Assembly: GCA_051003795.1 (NCBI GenBank)
Contig: JBPCKZ010000152.1
Coordinates: forward strand, 7,520-71,519
From: Bryobacteraceae bacterium
GTDB lineage: Bacteria; Acidobacteriota; Terriglobia; Bryobacterales; Bryobacteraceae
Direction: 5' to 3'
Length of the DNA stretch: 64,000 nt
In this document: positions 43,050 through 63,315 of the stretch, one piece after another
Layout: the number at the start of each line of letters is the position of its first letter
How positions within the stretch are numbered: position 1 is the stretch's first letter
Program-made: the position numbers and the translations under genes
Notes under the pieces: generated by a model
What the model was told of the DNA's origin: nothing
The model's database searches: none
What the model saw: only the letters and a program-made list of their open reading frames with translations

Positions 43050-44783
43050 TTAACTCGCCAACTCGAGCTCAATCCTTTTCTTATCCGCGTCCAGCCTCGC
43101 GATCCGGAAACTCCTGATCTGCCCGGCCCTCGCCGGCTCTTTCTTCACCGGGGCCGACAAGTCGCTCTGCCCCTGCTTCCACTTATTCGCCAGCATCGAA
43201 CTCAACGACGAAACGTCGGCCCGCGCGCCGGCGGCCTGTTTCTCTTCCCGATTCTCGCCGGCAATGTTGCACGAAGCCCGCACGCCTTCGCCCAACTCCA
43301 CTGTTGCCTTCCCGCGTGAAACGTCCGACACCCGCCCCGTCACCATGTCGCCTTCTTTATGCTCGGCGATGTACTCGTCGACCGACGTCGGCTGTAGTTG
43401 CTTCAATCCCAGCCGTAGCCGCCGCTTCGCGCGATCCATCTCCAGCACAACCGCCCGGACCTGCTGTCCCGCCTTCAGCACGTCCTGCGGATGCTCGACC
43501 CGCTTCTCCGCGCTGATGTCGCCGACGTGGATCATCCCCTCGACGTTTTCGCCCAATTGCACGAACGCCCCGAACTTCGTGAGACTCGTGACCGGCCCTT
43601 CGACAATCGTGCCCGGCTGATATTGTTTCTCCGCTTCCGCCCACGGATCTCCGAGCGTCTGCTTCAACCCTAAAGCAATCCGGTGTTCCGCCGGATTCAC
43701 GCCCAACACAACCACTTCCACCGCGTCGCCGGGCTTCAGCACGTCGCTCGGCTTCCGCACTTTTTTCGACCACGACATTTCGGACAGATGAACCAGCCCA
43801 TCGAGCCCCGGCTCGAGTTCGACGAACGCACCGAAATCCGCGACCCGCGAAACCGTTCCCTTCACGCGGTCGCCCACGTGGAATTTTTCCGCTACCTGGG
43901 TCCACGGGTCCGGCTGAAGCTGTTTCATTCCGAGCGCAACCCGCCGCTTGTTCGGATCGATCTTCAGAATCCGGACGTCCACCTGCTGCCCGACGGTCAA
44001 AACATCGGCGGGCTTCCCGATGCGCCCCCACGAAATCTCGCCGACATGCAGCATCCCATCGATGCCGCCGATATCGACGAACGCGCCGTAATCCATGAGG
44101 CTCCGCACCGTGCCCCGCACCTCCATGCCTTCGCGCAAATCGGTGAAGCGCTGCTCGCGGGAATGCTTCTCTTCTTCTTCCAGGACCACGCGCCGGTCGA
44201 CCACCACGTCTTCATCGGCCACATCGAGCTTGATGATCCGGCAGCTGATTTCCTGCCCCACCAGCGCCTGCAGCTCGGCCGCGTCTTTCGTGCCGCTGCG
44301 CGAACCGGGCATGAACGCGCGCACGCCCACATCCACCGTGACGCCGCCCTTGATCAATCCCGCGACCACTCCGGCGATGGCCCGCTTTTCCGCGAACGCC
44401 TGTTCCAACGAAGACCAGTCCTTCGGCCGCGCCACTTTAATCAAAGAAAGCTGATAATAACCCTCCGGATCGCGCCCCGTGATCGCCGCCTGCATCTTGT
44501 CGCCCTGCTTGAGGGTCAAATTTCCCGCCGGATCGCGGAAGCCTTCAACCGGCATGATGCCCTCGGTCTTCAGCCCGACATCGAGGAAAACCGACTCGCC
44601 CGAAATCGCGACCACGGTTGCTTCCCGCCCTTCCGTCCCGCCCCCCGGGGCGTTCGTGCGCGTGCCGTGCGACCGCTCGTATTGGCTCAGGATGTCGCCG
44701 AAGGAGGTATCGGCTTCAGACGGAGTTGGGGCTTCGAGGTCGCGCGTTTCCGAGTCGCGACCCAGGGAGTTGTGATTGGCCAT
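43050..44783 (-). CDS. rpsA: 30S ribosomal protein S1
   Basis: Six S1 repeats (e.g. GTVRSLMDYGAFVDIG, GTVSRVADFGAFVEL, GPVTSLTKFGAFVQLG). Start at ATG 44783 (MANHNSLG). The 97-codon upstream ORF extension is R/H-rich and implausible. Confidence 0.93.
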   Translation of the reverse strand: MANHNSLGRDSETRDLEAPTPSEADTSFGDILSQYERSHGTRTNAPGGGTEGREATVVAISGESVFLDVGLKTEGIMPVEGFRDPAGNLTLKQGDKMQAAITGRDPEGYYQLSLIKVARPKDWSSLEQAFAEKRAIAGVVAGLIKGGVTVDVGVRAFMPGSRSGTKDAAELQALVGQEISCRIIKLDVADEDVVVDRRVVLEEEEKHSREQRFTDLREGMEVRGTVRSLMDYGAFVDIGGIDGMLHVGEISWGRIGKPADVLTVGQQVDVRILKIDPNKRRVALGMKQLQPDPWTQVAEKFHVGDRVKGTVSRVADFGAFVELEPGLDGLVHLSEMSWSKKVRKPSDVLKPGDAVEVVVLGVNPAEHRIALGLKQTLGDPWAEAEKQYQPGTIVEGPVTSLTKFGAFVQLGENVEGMIHVGDISAEKRVEHPQDVLKAGQQVRAVVLEMDRAKRRLRLGLKQLQPTSVDEYIAEHKEGDMVTGRVSDVSRGKATVELGEGVRASCNIAGENREEKQAAGARADVSSLSSMLANKWKQGQSDLSAPVKKEPARAGQIRSFRIARLDADKKRIELELAS

Positions 44784-54796: not shown

Positions 54797-56986
54797 ATGT
54801 CATTTGAAAACTACGATCAGGCACTTGATCGCGCGGCGGATCTCTGCGGAGTGGAGCCGCGATTTTGGGATATTTTTGGGCATCTCCATACGGCGTCGGT
54901 TCAGACCAAGCGGGCCATCGTCGAGGCGCTCGGCATGCCGGCCGCGACGAAAGAAGATCTCGAAAGCGCGATCGCCCAACGCGAGAAGGCGGAATTGACA
55001 CGCATTTTGCCGCCCTGCCTAGTGGTGGACCTAGGCGAGCTCCTACGGATTCCGGTGCAGTTGCCGGAGACTCACTCGAACGTTCTCGCGGCGTTCGAAA
55101 TCGCGCTCGAAGATGGTTCGCGCCTTCGCTTCGAAAAGATAATCGGCGCGCGCATGCAGGTCGAATTGGACGCCCGCTTGCCGCTCGGATACCATGAACT
55201 GTCCGTCAGTGTCGCCGGCTTGAATCCGGAGAGTATTTCGCTGATCGTTGCGCCGGAACGCGCATTTCTGCCGGAGTCTCTGGCGCATGGGAAGAAGGCC
55301 GCCGGCGTAGCCGTTTCGCTCTACGGCCTCCGCTCGGAATTGAACTGGGGCTGCGGCGACTTCCGCGATCTGCGCGATGCAATCGACTGGGTGGCGGAAA
55401 TCGGCGGCGATTTCGTGGCCCTCAATCCGCTGCATGCGATTCACAATCGCCGGCCCTACAACACCAGCCCGTATCTTCCCAACAGCGTTTTCTATCAAAA
55501 CTTGATTTATCTGGAGGTCCCGGCGATCGAGGAATTCGAACATTCCACCGAAGCCCGTAGAGTTTGGTTTTCGCCTGAAACGCAGGAAGAGGCGCGGCAA
55601 CTTCGCGAATCCGAATTCGTGGAATATGAGCGCGTGAATGCGCTAAAGTTGCGTTTTTTAAGATTGTTGTTCGCCGAGTTCCGCCGGGCCGGGCGGCCTC
55701 TTGAAAAACGGAACGATTTTGAAGATTACCGCCGGCGGGAGGGCGATTTGCTGTATCGATTCGCGACCTACTGCGCGTTGGATGAACATCTTCATGCCGC
55801 CGATCCGGATGTTTGGATCTGGCCCGATTGGCCCGCCGGTTATCAAGACCCGGATTCGCCGAAAACACGCGAATTTCAGCGGAAACACGCCGAGGCAATT
55901 CTGTTTCATCAGTACGTCCAATGGCAGATCGATATCCAGTTGAACGCGGCGCAGCAATACGCGCGCGCGAAGGGGCTTTCAATTGGTCTCTATCACGATC
56001 TGGCGTTGGCGACGGACCGCTGCGGTTCGGATCTTTGGGCGCATCGGCCCTTCTACGTGGCGGGTTGCCGCGTGGGCTCGCCGCCCGACGATTTTTCGCC
56101 GGCCGGTCAGGATTGGGCGTTCCCTCCACCCAACGCCGAGCGCCATCGCGCCACCGGATACCGGCTATTTAGGGAATCCATCCGCAAGTCCTGCCGGCAT
56201 GGCGGCGCTCTGCGCATCGATCACGTAATGCGGTTCTTCCGGCTCTACTGGATACCCGACGGATCGGACGCGACCGCCGGAGCTTACGTGCGCGACAGGT
56301 CGGAGGATCTGGTCCGAATCCTCGCTCTCGAGAGCTTTCGCAACCGCGTGGCGGTGGTTGGCGAGGATCTGGGCACCGTGGAACCGCACATCCGCGAAAC
56401 GCTCGCGCGCTTCGGCATATTGAGTTACCGCCTGTTCTATTTCGAGCGCGGGCCGCACGGCAGCTTCAAGCGTCCGGACGAATATCCGCATCAATCGCTT
56501 GTATCCTCGACCACCCACGACCTGCCCACGCTTGCCGGATTCTGGATTCACGAAGACATCGAAGCGCGCCGCCGGGCGGGTGTAGTGGACGATGCCGAAT
56601 ATCGCCGTCAAATTGCCAATCGTTTACAAGACAAGCAGAAAATGTTGGACGCGCTTTTCGATCGGCACTTACTCCCGAGTTACTTTCCGCGGACGGCGAT
56701 TCACGTCCCCGAGCTAACCGGCGAGTTACACAACGCGGTAATTGGATTTCTCGCTTCGACGCCTTCGATGTTGATGGTCGTTAATCAGGAGGATCTGACT
56801 AAGGAGACGCATCAGCAGAACCTGCCGGGAACGACTTCGCAATATCCCAACTGGAGCCGGAAGATGAGGTTTACGTTTGAGCAATTGAGGACGGAGCCGC
56901 TCGCGATGGGATCGATGCAGATGTTCCGGGACTGGATGCGGCGCACGGGGCGGGAATCGGAACGAATCGCGGCTAAGATGATCTAG
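54797..56986 (+). CDS. malQ: 4-alpha-glucanotransferase (amylomaltase, GH77)
   Basis: [54 protein letters not shown] blocks. Confidence 0.92.
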
Positions 56987-57222
56987 TGGCACACTCAGGG
57001 CGGTTCACCCGAATCACGATCAATCCGGCGGTCGCTACCGGAAAGGCGTGTATTCGCGACTTGCGTTTTCCCGTATCGCGATTATTGGGCCTGCTTGCCG
57101 CGGGGGAATCGCCGGAATCGATTCTGAAAGCGTATCCTTATTTGGAACTGGCGGACATTGAGGAAACGCTTCGCTACGCTGCGTTCCTGGCCGAGGATGA
57201 GACGGTGGAACTCGCTGGGTGA
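56986..57222 (+). CDS. DUF433-domain protein (antitoxin-like)
   Basis: ITINPAVATGKACIRDLRFPVSRLLGLLAAGESPESILKAYPYLELADIEETLRYAA is the typical DUF433 pattern. Confidence 0.8.
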   Translation: MAHSGRFTRITINPAVATGKACIRDLRFPVSRLLGLLAAGESPESILKAYPYLELADIEETLRYAAFLAEDETVELAG

Positions 57223-57439
57223 AGTTTCTCGTGGATGTGGCTCTGATTTTCCCCGGCTTCTGGCAGCACTGAATGGTGCGGGACCTGGACTCATTCTCCT
57301 CCGTGGTGGAAATTACAGTGAATTCGAAAGCATGAAGTGCGTACGCCGCGTGCTGGCGGCAATACCCGGCCAGGAACTGCGGAAATCCGTTGTAGTAGTT
57401 GACAGAGAAAAGATCAGACGGCGATGGCTTCCGATATAG
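57219..57439 (+). pseudogene. remnant of a DUF5615 (PIN-like, toxin-type) gene
   Basis: GTG 57219 (GTGA overlap with the DUF433 stop) gives VKFLVDVALIF...stop. A second frame continues PRLLAALNGAGPG...LILLRGGNYSE...VVVVDREKIRRRWLPI. The length is not a multiple of 3, and the middle acidic core is missing. Confidence 0.5.
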
Positions 57440-57999
57440 TGTGGGCGCTTAATGCATAATGGCTGATTTTAATTTCGTCGCACGGAACGCGAGACCGTTT
57501 TATTACCTACGCCTTCAGACAAGTTGTTCTCTTCGCGCTTCGGACGTTCGACAAAGTGCACCTGTGGATGAATTCGCGGTGTTCCGACACGTTTGGCCCA
57601 AAATGCGGTAGTGGGTCAGTTTGCGTGAGCCGCTTTCAGGATTGCCTGCCGCGCAAGTCGGCGGTTTGGGCGTTATACGTCCTTGTGAAGGGGATGCCAA
57701 CTCCACACTTGCCGACTTTCGGCGGTTTGAGGCGCACCTTGTGGCTACCTCGCAGGCAACCTCCCAGCGTCGGATTCAGGCTGATAACTTCCGGATCGCC
57801 GACCACCCAGACGGAACACTCGTCGCCCCTCGCGGCAAGCGGCCATCTCGATTCTCGAGACCGTGAACGCCGCGACCGTATGTTTCAAGACCTCCACGAC
57901 TTTGTCCGGGTCGCGCGCGGAACACCGCGCAGCCCACCGACGGTGGACTTCTGCGTTCCAAAAGGTGTGGCTTTCTTGAGATACTACGAATTCCGTCTT

Positions 58000-59517
58000 A
58001 TGAAGATGACCGCTGACAAACGCGCGATCGACAAAATCTTTCGTCGTCGGGATCGTTACGAGATTCCTGATTGGCAGCGACAGAAGGTATGGAACAAGAA
58101 GAAGAAGCAAGGCCTTATTGACTCCATCCTGCGGGGTTGGAAGCTTCCCAAGTTCTATTTCGTAAAAAGCTTGGACGAGAACTTTCTCGTGGAAGACGGC
58201 CAACAGCGGCTTACCGCGATTTTCGAGTTCTTCTCGGGGGACCTAGGCCTGAGCCAGGAATCTGTTGAGATCTTCGGTGGGACGTACTACAGCGAGTTGA
58301 AACGGAACGTAGCGGACGCATTCGATGACTTCGATATCGAGTTCGACGTGATCGAAGACGCGACGGATGAGGAACTCAAAGAGTTCTTCCAGCGACTCCA
58401 GGAAGGCATGCCCCTGACGGGGAGCGAGAAGCTCAACGCGGTACCCAGCAAGCTCCGCGATTTCTGCAAGGAAACTGCAGCGAAGCACCCGTTCTTCAAG
58501 GAGACCATTGCTGTGCCTGATACGCGGTACGCGCACTTCGATATTCTCGCGAAAGTGGTCACCGTCGAGATCGAGGGCCTCGACACGGGGTTACGGCTGG
58601 ATGACGTGAAAGCAGTTTTTGAGGCGAGCAAGAACTTCGCCACCACTTCGGCGGTGGCAAAGCGCATCAAGAACGCCTTGGATTTGCTCGCTACGGCGTT
58701 CAAGGGCAACGGCTCCATGCTGCGCACGAGAACGATAGTCCAATCGCTCATCACGCTCACCTGCAAGATCGTGAGCACCAAGAACTACGCGGGCCGTGAG
58801 GCCCTCCTTAAAGAGTTCTTTGAGAGCTTCATGACCGAGTTGGCCACACAGATTGACAAGGGGCAAGAAGCCACAGACAGCGACTACGTCCAATTTCAGA
58901 AATCCGTGAGCGCCAACGTCACCGGCGCTGCCCGGACGCGCCAAGAAATCCTCCTCCGGAAGCTTTTTACGATCGCCCCTGAACTCAGCGCGATCTTCGA
59001 CCCGAGCGTCATCGCCGAGAGTGGCGTGACGGGACGCATCACGGCAGTCTCAGATTCCATCAATCAGCTCATCGAGCAGATCAATAAAAGGCACGCTGCC
59101 GCGACCGGCGACGACTTACTCAAGGCGACAAACAAGACCGCCCCGGCACTGTTGCGCCTTCGCAAGACGGTCACGACCCGCGATGCTTACGGCACGTTCA
59201 TCGATGATCTCTACTTCCTCTTCCGGGAGGGACCTGGAACTCGCGTCGACCCGGCAACCTTGCCATCGTTCGTCCACATCAACGACCTACGGACGGACCT
59301 GCGCCACGACGTGGATCATGGGGACAAGGGCAAGATTCGCTCCAAGCGGAAAAAAGCGGGTACAACCTTCGCGCTCTATGCCGGCGAGGGAACGCCGGAC
59401 ACCATCGAACCAGCCAAGTACCCACTATTCCAAGCGAACATCCTCACCGCAACAGAAGGCGACCTTCGAGCGCTCCTCTCAAGGCCGACCCCAAACCAGG
59501 CCACGCCCACATCTTGA
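58000..59517 (+). CDS. DUF262 (ParB/Srx-like nuclease fold) protein with a C-terminal R-x4-H region
   Basis: IPDWQRQKVW, LIDSILRGWKLPKFYF, DGQQRLTAIFEFF and FFQRLQEGMPLTGSEKLNA are DUF262 blocks. Near the C-terminus, INDLRTDLRHDVDHG. Start at ATG 58000; the upstream ORF extension crosses the TIR and is junk. Confidence 0.8.
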   Translation: MKMTADKRAIDKIFRRRDRYEIPDWQRQKVWNKKKKQGLIDSILRGWKLPKFYFVKSLDENFLVEDGQQRLTAIFEFFSGDLGLSQESVEIFGGTYYSELKRNVADAFDDFDIEFDVIEDATDEELKEFFQRLQEGMPLTGSEKLNAVPSKLRDFCKETAAKHPFFKETIAVPDTRYAHFDILAKVVTVEIEGLDTGLRLDDVKAVFEASKNFATTSAVAKRIKNALDLLATAFKGNGSMLRTRTIVQSLITLTCKIVSTKNYAGREALLKEFFESFMTELATQIDKGQEATDSDYVQFQKSVSANVTGAARTRQEILLRKLFTIAPELSAIFDPSVIAESGVTGRITAVSDSINQLIEQINKRHAAATGDDLLKATNKTAPALLRLRKTVTTRDAYGTFIDDLYFLFREGPGTRVDPATLPSFVHINDLRTDLRHDVDHGDKGKIRSKRKKAGTTFALYAGEGTPDTIEPAKYPLFQANILTATEGDLRALLSRPTPNQATPTS

Positions 59518-59948
59518 TCACCCCACCAATCCTGAACCTTCAGTAGGTTCCCACGGGCGACCTGCGAAAGGACTGGCCGGGTCGGCGCTTCGATCTAGGA
59601 AAATCCTGCGTCGCAAGTACGAGGCCCACACCGCGCAGACGGACGCCGCCGAAGCGGAACTTTCTCGGGCGACTCGCTCTATGGCACGGATTGGCGCTAG
59701 CCCGCATTCGGAGCTTGCAAGCTTCAAGCCGTGGAGATTTATTTTTGTCGTCTCATCATTCTGGACGGTTAACGCGCTAACGTTCCTTCTGCCGTGGGCG
59801 CAATGTGTGGAGCAGCACGTCAGCGGAATGCCGATCCGGACAATATCGCAACGTGGCTTCTCAGAACGCCGAAACCGCTTGCCGTAAAATCATCGGTGCA
59901 GCGCTCAACGGAAGAACTCCCGACGATCTATGATCGACAAGGGCACGG

Positions 59949-61028
59949 ATGTCGTTGACCCAACGCGGGACAACGTCAAAGAACCGTTCAGCAAATGGAT
60001 CTGGAAAGCCGGCGCACATGCCAACACCCGAACAAATTATAAGGATAGACGCCAAAACGTTTCAGGACTCGTTGGGCGAACTGGCGGCAACGATGGTGCA
60101 GAAGGTATTCCGGGAGGGTCGTCAGCACATTGCGGGGCCACTGTATGTCGGCGAGGATATCGCCATGCTGATTAGGTACGGCGCGAGCGTATACAACCTG
60201 CTCAACTACTTGAACGCTGACGAACGCCGCAAGGAGGACTGCTACTGGTACGTCCGTTACGGCGTAACCGGAATGTCACTGGTGCGGTCGCTTATCGATT
60301 GCCTGTATAACGTCGTCGCGATTCTGGAGGACCCAGCTGAGAAGGCCCCGCAGTACCGGAAGAGCGGACTAAAGAAGACCTTGGACGACATCGACGAGGA
60401 TCTAAAACAGTACGCCGACCAGCAGGACCGGCAGGAATCCTTGCAGCAGCGGCGGAAGACGGTCGAGTTGCTGGTACAGGGGAGCGGCTTCACGATCGAC
60501 GAAGTGATGCAACTCAAGAAGCATGAGATGTGGCCCACCTTCGGCACGTACGTTAATACAATGCAGCCTGGCGGGGTACGGACGGAGATTCAGGAGTTTC
60601 TGAAGACGTTTGCGCACTTGGAATGGCGGCAATATTCCGCGCTCTCGCACGGCGCCTATGAAGCCTTCATTGGCACTCTGGGGATGGTGCCGGTTGGGGC
60701 GTACTACATGAACGACTTCCTCCCGCATGAAGTACGGGACAAGCTCGACGAGACGTACGACTTGTTTCTGTCGATGCATATCGGCCGCTCAGCAACAGTC
60801 TTGTTGTGCATGCTTACCGAAATTCAGGTTCATTGCGGTTTCGATGGCGCGAATATTAACGAGCGGATCTGTAAGGTTTGGGCTGCACTTTTGCCTGTAC
60901 CGGAGACCAAAGAGTTGTATGACGGGAGATATTCCGAGCTCATGAAGAATCGTGGAATCGAGAAGGCGAGGGAACTTACGGTACTCTCTATTTCCAGAGC
61001 GCCGAACCCGGTCGTTGAACCTAAGTAA
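59949..61028 (+). CDS. hypothetical protein, AbiV/DUF5677-like helical pattern (weak)
   Basis: MSLVRSLIDCLYNVVAILEDP and LEWRQYSALSHGAYEAF resemble the R..E...yl..dp and y..lS..H blocks of Abi-type HEPN-like families. The start could instead be ATG 60018. Confidence 0.45.
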   Translation: MSLTQRGTTSKNRSANGSGKPAHMPTPEQIIRIDAKTFQDSLGELAATMVQKVFREGRQHIAGPLYVGEDIAMLIRYGASVYNLLNYLNADERRKEDCYWYVRYGVTGMSLVRSLIDCLYNVVAILEDPAEKAPQYRKSGLKKTLDDIDEDLKQYADQQDRQESLQQRRKTVELLVQGSGFTIDEVMQLKKHEMWPTFGTYVNTMQPGGVRTEIQEFLKTFAHLEWRQYSALSHGAYEAFIGTLGMVPVGAYYMNDFLPHEVRDKLDETYDLFLSMHIGRSATVLLCMLTEIQVHCGFDGANINERICKVWAALLPVPETKELYDGRYSELMKNRGIEKARELTVLSISRAPNPVVEPK

Positions 61029-61275
61029 AGACTCCTGAGGCTAGCGGCCGACGCAACGATGCTTGAGTTTGTGGGCCAATCACGCGCGATCCGGAAGTTA
61101 AACGCTGGACAAATTCTGCTCAGATCCCGCCTGACGGCGTAGTGTTTACCGGGGCGGTGTCACTTGGCTCGTTTGTCGGCGAACCGTTGAAGTGCTCGTC
61201 TGCGCGGGCAAACTGACCCACTACCCAAAATGCAAACAACTCGATCCCGACGATAAGATCGGCTTGGCCTGAATC

Positions 61276-63315
61276 TTATTTCCACACAGGATTGATAAAA
61301 GCCCCGTTTCCCGCAACGTCCCAGATTGCCAGCCGCGCCCATTTCCAGCCCTTCGCGTCGAGTTCCCAATCGAACGAGCCCTTCCCAAATTCCCGCGTGG
61401 TGTCAAGCGAAAAAATCTTGTGGAACGTTTGCGTCCCGTCGCCCCAGACCACTTCCGCCATTCGCAACGGAAACGTGTAACTCACATCCGCGTGCGCCAT
61501 CAGTTTGTCTCCGGCCGGTCTTATGGAAGCTGCCGGCAGCGTGATCTCGCCGGTCGTGATGAAGTAGTCCCCTTTCGCCACCGTATCGAGAAGCTGTCCG
61601 TAGTTATCGTAAGTCGGCAGAGCCGGAAGCCGCACATAGTTCACATTCATGTGCCCGTATAACTCGTGCGTCGAATCGAGCTGAAACACGTCCACCTCAC
61701 CTATCATCCGCTTCTTCAGCCCTAAGTTGTTCATGTCGTCGACGGTTTTAAATGCGCGCTCGCCCAGCCGGGGAGACGAAAGGTCGGACGGCATCGCTTT
61801 CCAGCCCGATCCGAGGTAACGCGGATCGTGGAAATAAAAAGTGTCCATGATCTTGTCGGGATAACCCGTCGAGCCTTTCGTGCGCGGATGGGTTTGATAA
61901 ACGTAGCCGTTTTCGGCGCGCACCATGTCCCACACCTCCTTCGCATCGCTTACGCGATAGACGGTTCCATATTTCGGAACGGTGCTCCGAAATGGCTGAT
62001 CGGGTTTGCGGTCCATAAACCAATAGACCGGCTTGGGGAACACCAGCGCCCAATGGCCGCCGAGGATCGCATTGGCTTCTTCGGAAGGCATCAGCAGGAA
62101 ATCCGCGTTCGATTGCGCCCGGCACGCTTTAAAGAAATCGCGGAGTTCTTGGAGGCGAACTTCCCCCAAATCGCGCGGGTGGCCGTCGCCGTGGAAATCC
62201 ATGATCATCGCCGAATCCAGGCCAATCGCTTTCATTGCGGCCTTAAACGGCGGGGGCCAGTCGAAGCCATTGGCTATGGCTTGCATCGTGTATGCCAGAT
62301 GCCAGTGCGGCGCGAACGTCTTGTATCCCGCGAGCGCCGGAAACTTGTCGCCATGCGTGTAACGCAGGACGCTATCGAGCGCGGCGCGCTGGTCTCCGTC
62401 GCCCACCGAGATGAACATGCGCATCTGCTGCTCGGTTCCGGGCGGCGCGTTCATCCAAGGATAGTAAGGCGAGTAATCGTCGGGATATTGGCGAATGCCG
62501 AGCGACACGTTGCCGCGCCAGGCCGTGTACCAAACGTAGCCCATGTTCGTGGTGTAATCGCGCGCCATCATGTACTGGTGGGGAGCGGGGAACACCGCGA
62601 CACTGCCGGCGCCCGATTTCGCCGCCAAAACGCGGTATCGGACGGACAGCGAGCGCCGCTCCGAACCGTAGGCAGGCGCCATGGTTTGGAACTCGCCCTT
62701 CGTATCGAAATAGCCGATGTGCGATTCCATATTTCCGCCGGGCCGTTCATCCGCCGGCTCCGCCATTCGCAGCCCCGCATCGTAGAAGTAAGCTGTGTCG
62801 GGTTCTTGGGTCGACATCACGGCTTGCTGCTCGATTAAGCGGCTCCCCGGATAGAAAATGTAGCGGATGCTCCCCGAGAAGATTCCGCAGCGCATGCCGT
62901 CGAACGAAATCTCGATGCGGTCGCCGATCGATTTCGCGCGCGCGCCCTTTGGATGAAATTCACCCAGGAAGCTTCGCGTTCCTTCGGGATGGCTCGGCGG
63001 AAAATCGAAAAACGCGTCGAAGCCGCCGCGCCGCTTGCCTGTTTCGCAGCGATAGAACGGCTGGGCGCGTTCGATGACGCGCTTGCCTTCGATCGAGATC
63101 GCCGTAATCAAAGGTTTCGCCGAGTCGAGCGAGAACTCGGCGGACCAGTTGCGCGCCGACGCGTCTTTCCAGTGAACGGTAGCCGCCGCCGCGCTCGAAT
63201 CCACTGTCGCGGGGCCAGGCTGGACGGCGGACCCGTCGAACGTTATTGCGGCCGCGAATAAAGTCGAACAACTCGCCGCAAGCAGGACCGGATTTTTCAA
63301 AACGAATCGTGGCAT
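61276..63315 (-). CDS. hypothetical secreted protein
   Basis: Long ORF with coding-like composition. Start placed at ATG 63315 (MPRFVLKNPVLLAASCSTLFAAA signal). Family not recognised. Confidence 0.7.
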   Translation of the reverse strand: MPRFVLKNPVLLAASCSTLFAAAITFDGSAVQPGPATVDSSAAAATVHWKDASARNWSAEFSLDSAKPLITAISIEGKRVIERAQPFYRCETGKRRGGFDAFFDFPPSHPEGTRSFLGEFHPKGARAKSIGDRIEISFDGMRCGIFSGSIRYIFYPGSRLIEQQAVMSTQEPDTAYFYDAGLRMAEPADERPGGNMESHIGYFDTKGEFQTMAPAYGSERRSLSVRYRVLAAKSGAGSVAVFPAPHQYMMARDYTTNMGYVWYTAWRGNVSLGIRQYPDDYSPYYPWMNAPPGTEQQMRMFISVGDGDQRAALDSVLRYTHGDKFPALAGYKTFAPHWHLAYTMQAIANGFDWPPPFKAAMKAIGLDSAMIMDFHGDGHPRDLGEVRLQELRDFFKACRAQSNADFLLMPSEEANAILGGHWALVFPKPVYWFMDRKPDQPFRSTVPKYGTVYRVSDAKEVWDMVRAENGYVYQTHPRTKGSTGYPDKIMDTFYFHDPRYLGSGWKAMPSDLSSPRLGERAFKTVDDMNNLGLKKRMIGEVDVFQLDSTHELYGHMNVNYVRLPALPTYDNYGQLLDTVAKGDYFITTGEITLPAASIRPAGDKLMAHADVSYTFPLRMAEVVWGDGTQTFHKIFSLDTTREFGKGSFDWELDAKGWKWARLAIWDVAGNGAFINPVWK

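Follow-up and report, generated by a model that had tools for sequence, protein, structure and literature searches.

GmrSD, BrxU and SspE are single polypeptides in which a ParB/Srx-fold DUF262 domain, marked by the motif DGQQR, is followed by a helical middle domain and by a C-terminal effector, the DUF1524 His-Me finger nuclease. NsnA of the Menshen system, for which a sensor role was proposed, combines a ParB-DUF262 domain with a helical ParB-associated DNA-binding domain that also forms the middle domain of GmrSD and SspE (Li et al., PMC12065111). HEPN domains, in which helix 3 ends in the R-x4-6-H motif and the histidine opens the next loop, are reported with HNH, restriction endonuclease (REase)-fold and ParB-like DNase partners (Anantharaman et al., PMC3710099). 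The reverse transcriptases (RTs) of clade-8 retrons carry one of three C-terminal effectors, namely Toprim, TIR or protease (Mestre et al., PMC7736814). The locus described here lies in a stretch of 64,000 nucleotides (nt) from a Bryobacteraceae bacterium (assembly GCA_051003795.1, contig JBPCKZ010000152.1, positions 7,520 to 71,519 of the forward strand), called the window below. It holds gene A, coding for a DUF262 protein with a helical C-terminal module, and gene B, coding for a protein related to DUF5677 (PF18928). Both are enclosed by a 3.6-kb cassette, read from the window sequence at positions 57607–61225.

The region is read, with moderate confidence, as two unrelated single-gene conflict modules, probably anti-phage, that are stacked as passengers of one cassette and do not form a co-evolved system. 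Gene A would represent a new form of an established class of defence enzymes, set apart by its architecture and by an end module, covered by no Pfam, NCBIfam or PADLOC model, that is shared with RTs of retrons and with GmrSD-type enzymes.

Genes A and B as passengers of one cassette

The original prediction had joined the two genes, perhaps with a small open reading frame (ORF) between them, in a two- or three-gene defence module and had called for an analysis of their co-occurrence. The two families were not found together elsewhere. None of the 16 gene B loci of a genome scan has gene A within 8 kb, and four further gene B loci (L027/L028, L029 and L114) also lack it (0/20 in total). Gene B is absent from all 90 gene A loci collected by metagenome scan and look-ups, 46 of which have at least 1.5 kb of sequence downstream and 47 at least 1.5 kb upstream. 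In viral contigs gene B is absent and gene A was found once, without B. Such a lack of co-occurrence had been named in the original prediction as speaking against it, and a conserved module of two or three genes is therefore rejected for A and B.

The closest relatives of gene A part from the window before gene B is reached. In locus L115 (93% amino acid and 92% nucleotide identity to gene A) the similarity ends at ~59690 and is followed by ~950 nt of unrelated DNA without gene B, and in L108 (96% amino acid identity) it stops at 59741. In L021 and L022 (88% amino acid identity) a 69-nt block matching 61080–61148 of the window lies ~220 nt 3' of gene A, with no gene B between. This early divergence, together with the presence of the right-end block without B, indicates by sequence comparison that gene B and its flanks (~59742–61079) are an addition specific to this cassette lineage.

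A single defence system of mutually dependent parts, made up of both genes with or without the small ORF, is very improbable, although two points weigh for it and against the separation of the two genes. The genes are neighbours on the same strand of the mobile cassette and no terminator is predicted in the stretch that separates them, so that co-expression or synergy within the cassette is possible, and both products resemble defence proteins, in agreement with the original prediction. Most metagenome contigs are moreover short, and rare A–B pairs may exist elsewhere. Such a system is contradicted by the counts given above and by the departure of the closest A relatives before B. It also conflicts with the distribution of the two families, each of which is widespread, patchily distributed and strongly conserved as a solo gene, and with the properties of the small ORF. 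The possibility that gene B provides A with immunity or an antitoxin was discarded, since gene A is almost always alone.

Gene A and the ORF of gene B, counted from 59949, are separated by 431 nt (Table 1 gives the coordinates of all features). Note that the A-linked part of this gap carries 74 extra nt (59581–59654) that are missing from both L108 and L115. The original prediction had ascribed a peptide with a single transmembrane segment to a 68-codon ORF in the gap. The ORF exists and has no family match; it shares no more than the first 21 codons with L108, and its hydrophobic part is matched nowhere. It begins in the A-linked 3' region and runs over the recombination junction into the B-linked segment. 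Since it spans this junction and is not conserved, the ORF is most likely a junction artefact and not a gene.

Table 1. Coordinates, in the window, of the two genes and of the cassette that carries them.
Feature	Position	Strand	Basis or remark
Left target-site duplication, CAAAATGC, 8 bp	57599-57606	+	Direct sequence reading
Left terminal inverted repeat, GGTAGTGGGTCAGTTTGC, 18 bp	57607-57624	+	Direct reading; perfect inverted repeat with right end
Leader, left repeat to gene A	57625-57999	+	Contains left 15-bp subterminal repeat
Gene A, 505 amino acids	58000-59517	+	Intact ORF; Pfam GmrSD_N, PADLOC NsnA, AlphaFold2 model
C-terminal all-helical module of gene A, ~155-165 amino acids, residues ~340-505	59017-59514	+	Invariant columns, profile search
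Gene A-linked 3' region	59518-59741	+	blastn and alignment with closest relatives
68-codon ORF	59681-59887	+	Most likely not a gene
Gene B, 336 amino acids, all-helical DUF5677-superfamily protein	60018-61028	+	258 homologues, invariant columns, AlphaFold2
Right end of cassette	61080-61233	+	Subterminal block 61080-61148, terminal repeat and target duplication
Right terminal repeat, 18 bp	61208-61225	+	Perfect inverted repeat of left end
Right target-site duplication, CAAAATGC, exact 8-bp copy	61226-61233	+	Sequence reading

The description of A and B as cargo of a mobile element was borne out by the terminal repeats and the 8-bp target duplication. No transposase ORF was found between the repeats in the ORF list or with Pfam. 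The terminal-repeat pattern, with up to 3 mismatches allowed, has 21 matches in the genome and its reversed control pattern 5. In a related 2.4-kb cassette (contig C127:99–2481) a TIR-domain protein is found together with an IstB fragment, another repeat copy (C201:29041–31500) is accompanied by a trypsin-like peptidase and a DDE transposase, and an IS1-type DDE transposase adjoins the same repeat type in C228 from position 44638 onward. With its perfect repeats, no internal transposase and related IS1-type transposase copies elsewhere in the genome, the element is a non-autonomous, transposase-less IS1-type cassette whose relatives carry conflict-type passengers. The terminal-repeat copies often lie at contig ends, and this repeat family probably breaks the assembly.

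Inside the terminal repeats, a 15-bp perfect subterminal inverted repeat, TAACTTCCGGATCGC, pairs positions 57785–57799 with 61086–61100, ~180 and ~125 nt inward from the left and right cassette ends. Its right copy sits within the block also present 3' of gene A in L021 and L022. From 57800 on, the leader has 88–94% nucleotide identity with L108, L033 and L115.

The core of gene A and its C-terminal module

The start of gene A is fixed at 58000 by the amino terminus MKM (MKM(T/L/S)) common to all relatives; a longer upstream frame from 57556 is unused. As originally predicted, the product is a DUF262 protein with DGQQR (Pfam GmrSD_N/DUF262, E 2.9e-18) and lacks the DUF1524 nuclease (no Pfam match to DUF1524/GmrSD_C, PF07510). 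The ParB-DUF262 NTPase domain covers roughly residues 1–150, with QRxxxW at 26–31 and DGQQR at 66–70, of which D66, G67, Q68 and R70 are invariant across homologues. A helical ParBDB-like domain reaches ~residue 290 and the C-terminal module follows. In the AlphaFold2 model (mean predicted local distance difference test, pLDDT, 86) a beta/alpha N-terminal domain is followed by helices only. Foldseek gives BrxU (7p9k) as the best match of this model (probability 0.99) and also finds ParB/Noc/KorB CTPases and sulfiredoxin. A sequence search of solved structures with A, B and the module returned chance-level matches only (BrxU N-terminus at E 0.09, interferon gamma, a phage fibre protein).

The best PADLOC match of gene A is NsnA (1.1e-31), with residues 3–287 aligned to positions 46–328 of the 385-position model. 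Nearly the whole NsnA model is thus covered, and gene A also carries the QRxxxW and DGxQR motifs described for this protein (PMC12065111). It differs from NsnA by ~215 extra C-terminal residues, which include the module, and by the absence of an NsnB ATPase or NsnC effector gene beside it, here and in 90 other loci. As NsnB and NsnC are missing at all of these loci, gene A is not a Menshen system. The possibility that it needs a Menshen-type partner was rejected on the same ground, no NsnB/NsnC-like neighbour being found. Compared with GmrSD, BrxU and SspE, gene A shares the single polypeptide, the DUF262 domain, the helical middle domain and the position of a putative C-terminal effector, and has the unrelated all-helical module in place of the His-Me finger.

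The module contains the most conserved stretch of the protein, within which lies LRTDLRHDVDHG (residues 430–441, nt 59287–59322). Residues R431, T432, H436, D437, D439, H440 and G441 are invariant in 53 gene A homologues (51–87% identity), which bears out the originally noted strong conservation of an R-x4-H region at this end. The motif R431-T-x3-H436-D-x-D-H-G441 spans nt 59290–59322, and FKxTNKT and IDDLYFLFxE are further conserved blocks. Out of 1.84 billion representative proteins, 621 match a profile of the last ~200 residues (E<=1e-3). In the best 150 of these 621 matches, in which architectures were surveyed, the last ~155 residues act as a discrete module; 34 proteins share the N-terminus of gene A and 23 have other long N-terminal regions.

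The other architectures fall among defence-type enzymes. The module forms the C-terminus of retron-type RTs (P0361, P0363 and P0371; Pfam RVT_1) whose RT part alone matches PADLOC RT-Protease_XI, RT-TIR_XII and RT-Toprim_I-C at 1e-92 to 1e-139; NCBIfam groups P0361 with the Retron_TIR_antiphage and Ec67 types. It also ends a BrxU-like GmrSD_N+GmrSD_C protein (P0384; HEC-05 at 5e-55), which has both the DUF1524 of GmrSD/BrxU and the module, a NucS_C PD-(D/E)xK protein (P0373) and two DUF262-HNH proteins (P0342 and P0368) whose N-terminal part is NsnA-like, as in gene A. Several further module proteins have helical N-termini without family assignment. In all seven proteins of other architecture that were read (RT, HNH, GmrSD and unknown N-termini) R431 and H436 are kept within [LIV]R[TNL]xxxHD[VLI][DE]HG, and FKxTN and (I/V)DxLYxxxxEGxG are also kept across architectures. 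The module itself has no match in Pfam, NCBIfam, PHROG or the PDB sequences, and no PADLOC model covers it.

The position of the module in retron RTs and its fusion to DNases point to an effector. In RTs that resemble those of clade-8 single-gene retrons (I-C RT-Toprim, XI RT-protease and XII RT-TIR; PMC7736814) it fills the C-terminal effector slot, replacing protease, TIR or Toprim, and P0361, P0363 and P0371 may represent an undescribed single-protein retron type. Note that gene A has no RT and that the end module is its sole link to retrons. Its DNase partners (HNH, DUF1524 and PD-(D/E)xK) are the partner set reported for HEPN domains (PMC3710099). The outline of gene A and its relatives, which combine ParB/DUF262, in some cases HNH, and a final helical domain with R-x4-6-H, is that of the ParB-HEPN and ParB(DUF262)-HNH-HEPN fusions (PMC3710099); they differ in that the module has no match to HEPN_Swt1 or to another Pfam HEPN family that would demonstrate its membership in those families. 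In the gene A model helix 394–408 is followed by E410, helix 422–435, the loop HDVDHG and helix 443–461. R431 lies at the end of helix 422–435 and H436 opens the loop before helix 443–461, a predicted placement that would agree with that of the HEPN motif (PMC3710099). HEPN domains are four-helix up-down bundles with an acidic residue in helix 2, and the predicted secondary structure of the module would fit this scheme. The module has the R-x4-6-H by which the HEPN superfamily is recognised.

Several results weigh against a HEPN-like effector. No Pfam HEPN family matches the module at E<=10. In hhalign comparisons with HEPN_Swt1 and HEPN_AbiV alignments built from phylum genomes it scored 0.3% and 0.1%, a weak test since the Swt1-versus-AbiV control also gave 0.1%. 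The Foldseek matches of the whole gene A model are confined to the N-terminal domain among the 50 matches listed. In proteins that already hold a DNase domain the module could be regulatory rather than catalytic, and the H-D-x-D/E-H-G cluster could be the metal site of another enzyme type. Because no HEPN profile matched and the hhalign test was uninformative, the module is called an effector-like domain that may be HEPN-like. An RNase of this type is its likeliest reading, on which confidence is about even. The originally suggested HEPN-type nature of this region is therefore upheld as far as motif, helix position and fusion partners go, and was confirmed by no profile or fold search.

A metal-dependent DNase or phosphodiesterase that is not HEPN-like would make gene A a restriction enzyme similar to type IV, in which the end that cuts DNA is new. 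The invariant H436-D437-x-D439-H440-G441 together with E410 resembles a metal-binding site, all characterised DUF262 fusion enzymes (GmrSD, BrxU and SspE) cut or nick DNA (PMC10952713), A homologues adjoin restriction-modification genes, and the failure of HEPN profiles to match the module fits as well. This reading is nevertheless unlikely: the module is all-helical in the model, without a beta-beta-alpha or PD-(D/E)xK core, R-[TN]-x3-H is a typical HEPN signature, and a second DNase would be redundant in the HNH, DUF1524 or NucS nucleases to which the module is appended.

Still less likely is a non-catalytic module serving in oligomerisation, sensing or regulation, with gene A working, like ParB or KorB, as a DNA clamp or silencer driven by NTP, for instance in maintenance of the element. 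In the retron RT fusions the module is the only non-RT domain and occupies the effector slot, the invariance of its polar and charged residues (R, H, D, D/E, H, E) points to a catalytic role, and gene A is found mostly outside recognisable mobile elements and beside restriction genes. A clamp would be in line with the match of the N-terminal fold to ParB, Noc and KorB CTPase clamps, with the occurrence of the module after complete nuclease enzymes and with the sensor, not effector, role proposed for the NsnA core of Menshen (PMC12065111).

The effector reading of the module extends to a wider proposal, made tentatively and with slightly more doubt than confidence, that the module is a previously unmodelled toxic effector domain ([LIV]R[TN]xxxHD[VLI][DE]HG) shuffled among defence enzymes. 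If true, it would define a GmrSD-like class in which an NsnA-type sensor core and the module effector are joined in one protein, a fourth clade-8 single-protein retron, in which the module is joined to the RT as Toprim, protease and TIR are in the other three, and BrxU-like, DUF262-HNH and NucS-like nucleases extended by the module.

Besides the genome of the window itself, reference genomes of the phylum contain one distant gene A relative (32% identity) among 400 others. Of 8,000 metagenome candidates that were scored, 1,446 are relatives at E<=0.001, and named relatives come from at least Acidobacteriota and Candidatus Binatus assemblies (65–88% identity). This pattern, rare in reference genomes and common in metagenomes, suggests recent horizontal spread. 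The surroundings vary: in L021 and L026 gene A relatives stand alone among housekeeping genes, and in L023 the relative belongs to a defence island that also holds Shedu SduA_C, DUF499, a nuclease of the Mrr_cat type and a resolvase. In L116 a 373-residue protein without Pfam match (L116:2915–4036) lies 3' of an 86%-identical gene A and an HNH_5 protein precedes it; this locus is another cassette-like stacking with different partners.

A DNA methylase adjoins gene A in at least eight loci and an Eco29kI endonuclease in five. Homologues with 55–66% identity stand beside an N6/N4 DNA methylase in L077, L083, L089, L097, L098, L063, L061, L047 and L110. These distant homologues suggest a repeated association with a single type II restriction-modification system. 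Across the 90 gene A loci no conserved neighbour was found except the methylase and Eco29kI in this subset.

Gene B and the flanks of the cassette

The ORF of gene B is intact and open from 59949 to 61028. Homologues are typically ~314 residues long and the collection's own call is 336 residues, which makes a start at 60018 likelier than one at 59949. The protein has two invariant blocks, R90-x3-D94-C-x2-N98 (nt 60285–60311) and W203-R-Q-Y-S-A-L-S-H211 (nt 60624–60650). The corresponding segments RSLIDCLYN and WRQYSALSH, singled out in the original prediction, proved invariant or nearly so in 23–47 homologues. AlphaFold2 predicts an all-helical fold (pLDDT 89; predicted template modelling score, pTM, 0.87). 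Foldseek found no fold match for it in the PDB (best E 0.09) or BFVD (best 0.5), with template modelling (TM) scores below 0.3.

Gene B of the window matches DUF5677 (PF18928) at E 0.002 with 18.6–18.8 bits, below the Pfam cut-off of 27.1. The same family is matched at E<=0.1 by 38 of 47 gene B family members (best 5e-6), and a precomputed DUF5677 annotation exists for three relatives. Compared by hhalign with 22 genuine DUF5677 proteins of the phylum, gene B scores 86.6% (E 4.5e-6) over 245 columns, in which R90/D94 and S207/H211 align with the R-x-l-E (R-x-l-[DE]) and S-x3-H columns of the family. The alignment and the shared signatures identify gene B, as far as sequence can tell, as a divergent DUF5677 protein; it differs from the family in the additional invariant residues C95, N98, R204, H254 and E268 and in its sub-cut-off score.

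Of the AbiV/DUF5677 likeness originally proposed for gene B, the DUF5677 part is thereby supported. Gene B resembles AbiV (HEPN_AbiV, PF18728) in being helical, in its location on mobile elements and in a conserved histidine at a helix end. It differs in that none of the 47 members matches AbiV in Pfam at E<=0.1 and no AbiV model of PADLOC matched at E<=1. Against HEPN_AbiV, hhalign gave 0.2%, and against HEPN_Swt1 it was also negative; both are tests of low power, the Swt1-versus-AbiV control being equally negative.

To our knowledge no function has been assigned to DUF5677. The closest readable relatives of gene B (L027/L028, L029 and L114, with 75%, 71% and 83% amino acid identity by tblastn) lie in contexts with integrase, DnaB-primase, DUF3489 or DUF736, surroundings typical of integrative elements. 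One preprint reports DUF5677 as enriched beside serine recombinases (PMC12632615). A DUF5677 gene challenged with six phages in Enterococcus is absent from the protective genes reported there (PMC12632615), a result that tells against an anti-phage role. No conserved neighbour of at least 100 residues accompanies gene B; a small antitoxin-like ORF as its partner was rejected, none being conserved within 900 nt.

Gene B copies are split, truncated or frameshifted in several reference genomes (L009, L015, L016, L017 and L018), as would be expected of a costly or dispensable gene that often decays. In L006 and L007 the gene and ~5 kb of surroundings are nearly identical in assemblies labelled Alphaproteobacteria and Acidobacteriaceae; the source of this likeness is a mobile element common to both or a mistake in binning.

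The surroundings of the cassette hold malQ, a gene for a 695-residue protein without Pfam match and an intact DUF433 gene whose partner has decayed. The DUF433 gene (Pfam 2.3e-21) and, after it, remnants of a DUF5615 partner in two frames occupy 56986–57439, just left of the cassette; DUF5615 is the usual partner of DUF433. An Rfam scan of 57400–61400 gave no match, and a promoter and terminator scan found nothing beyond shuffled expectation.

Proposed roles and implications

On the model of GmrSD, BrxU and SspE, the core of gene A, formed by the ParB-DUF262 domain and the helical DNA-binding domain, would bind foreign or modified DNA, and NTP binding and hydrolysis at DGQQR would then activate the C-terminal module. 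The module would be a toxic effector, most likely a nuclease, and the location of its invariant R-x4-H where a helix ends is in keeping with an RNase of HEPN-like type. Restriction or abortive infection may result. Gene B would act on its own as a helical, enzyme-like protein of the DUF5677 superfamily, usually carried on integrative elements.

The analysis corrects a plausible operon call made from adjacency: that two genes lie side by side in a mobile cassette does not show that they form a system, and A and B are read as solo genes stacked on one element. The gene A family, with at least 1,400 metagenome relatives, joins a DNA sensor of the GmrSD/Menshen type to a new end module. If this module is a toxic nuclease, it would be a new effector type for two well-studied anti-phage classes and phage-challenge tests would gain simple candidates that consist of one gene. 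With gene B, DUF5677, a family that recurs on mobile elements, gains a branch that is conserved and modelled with confidence.

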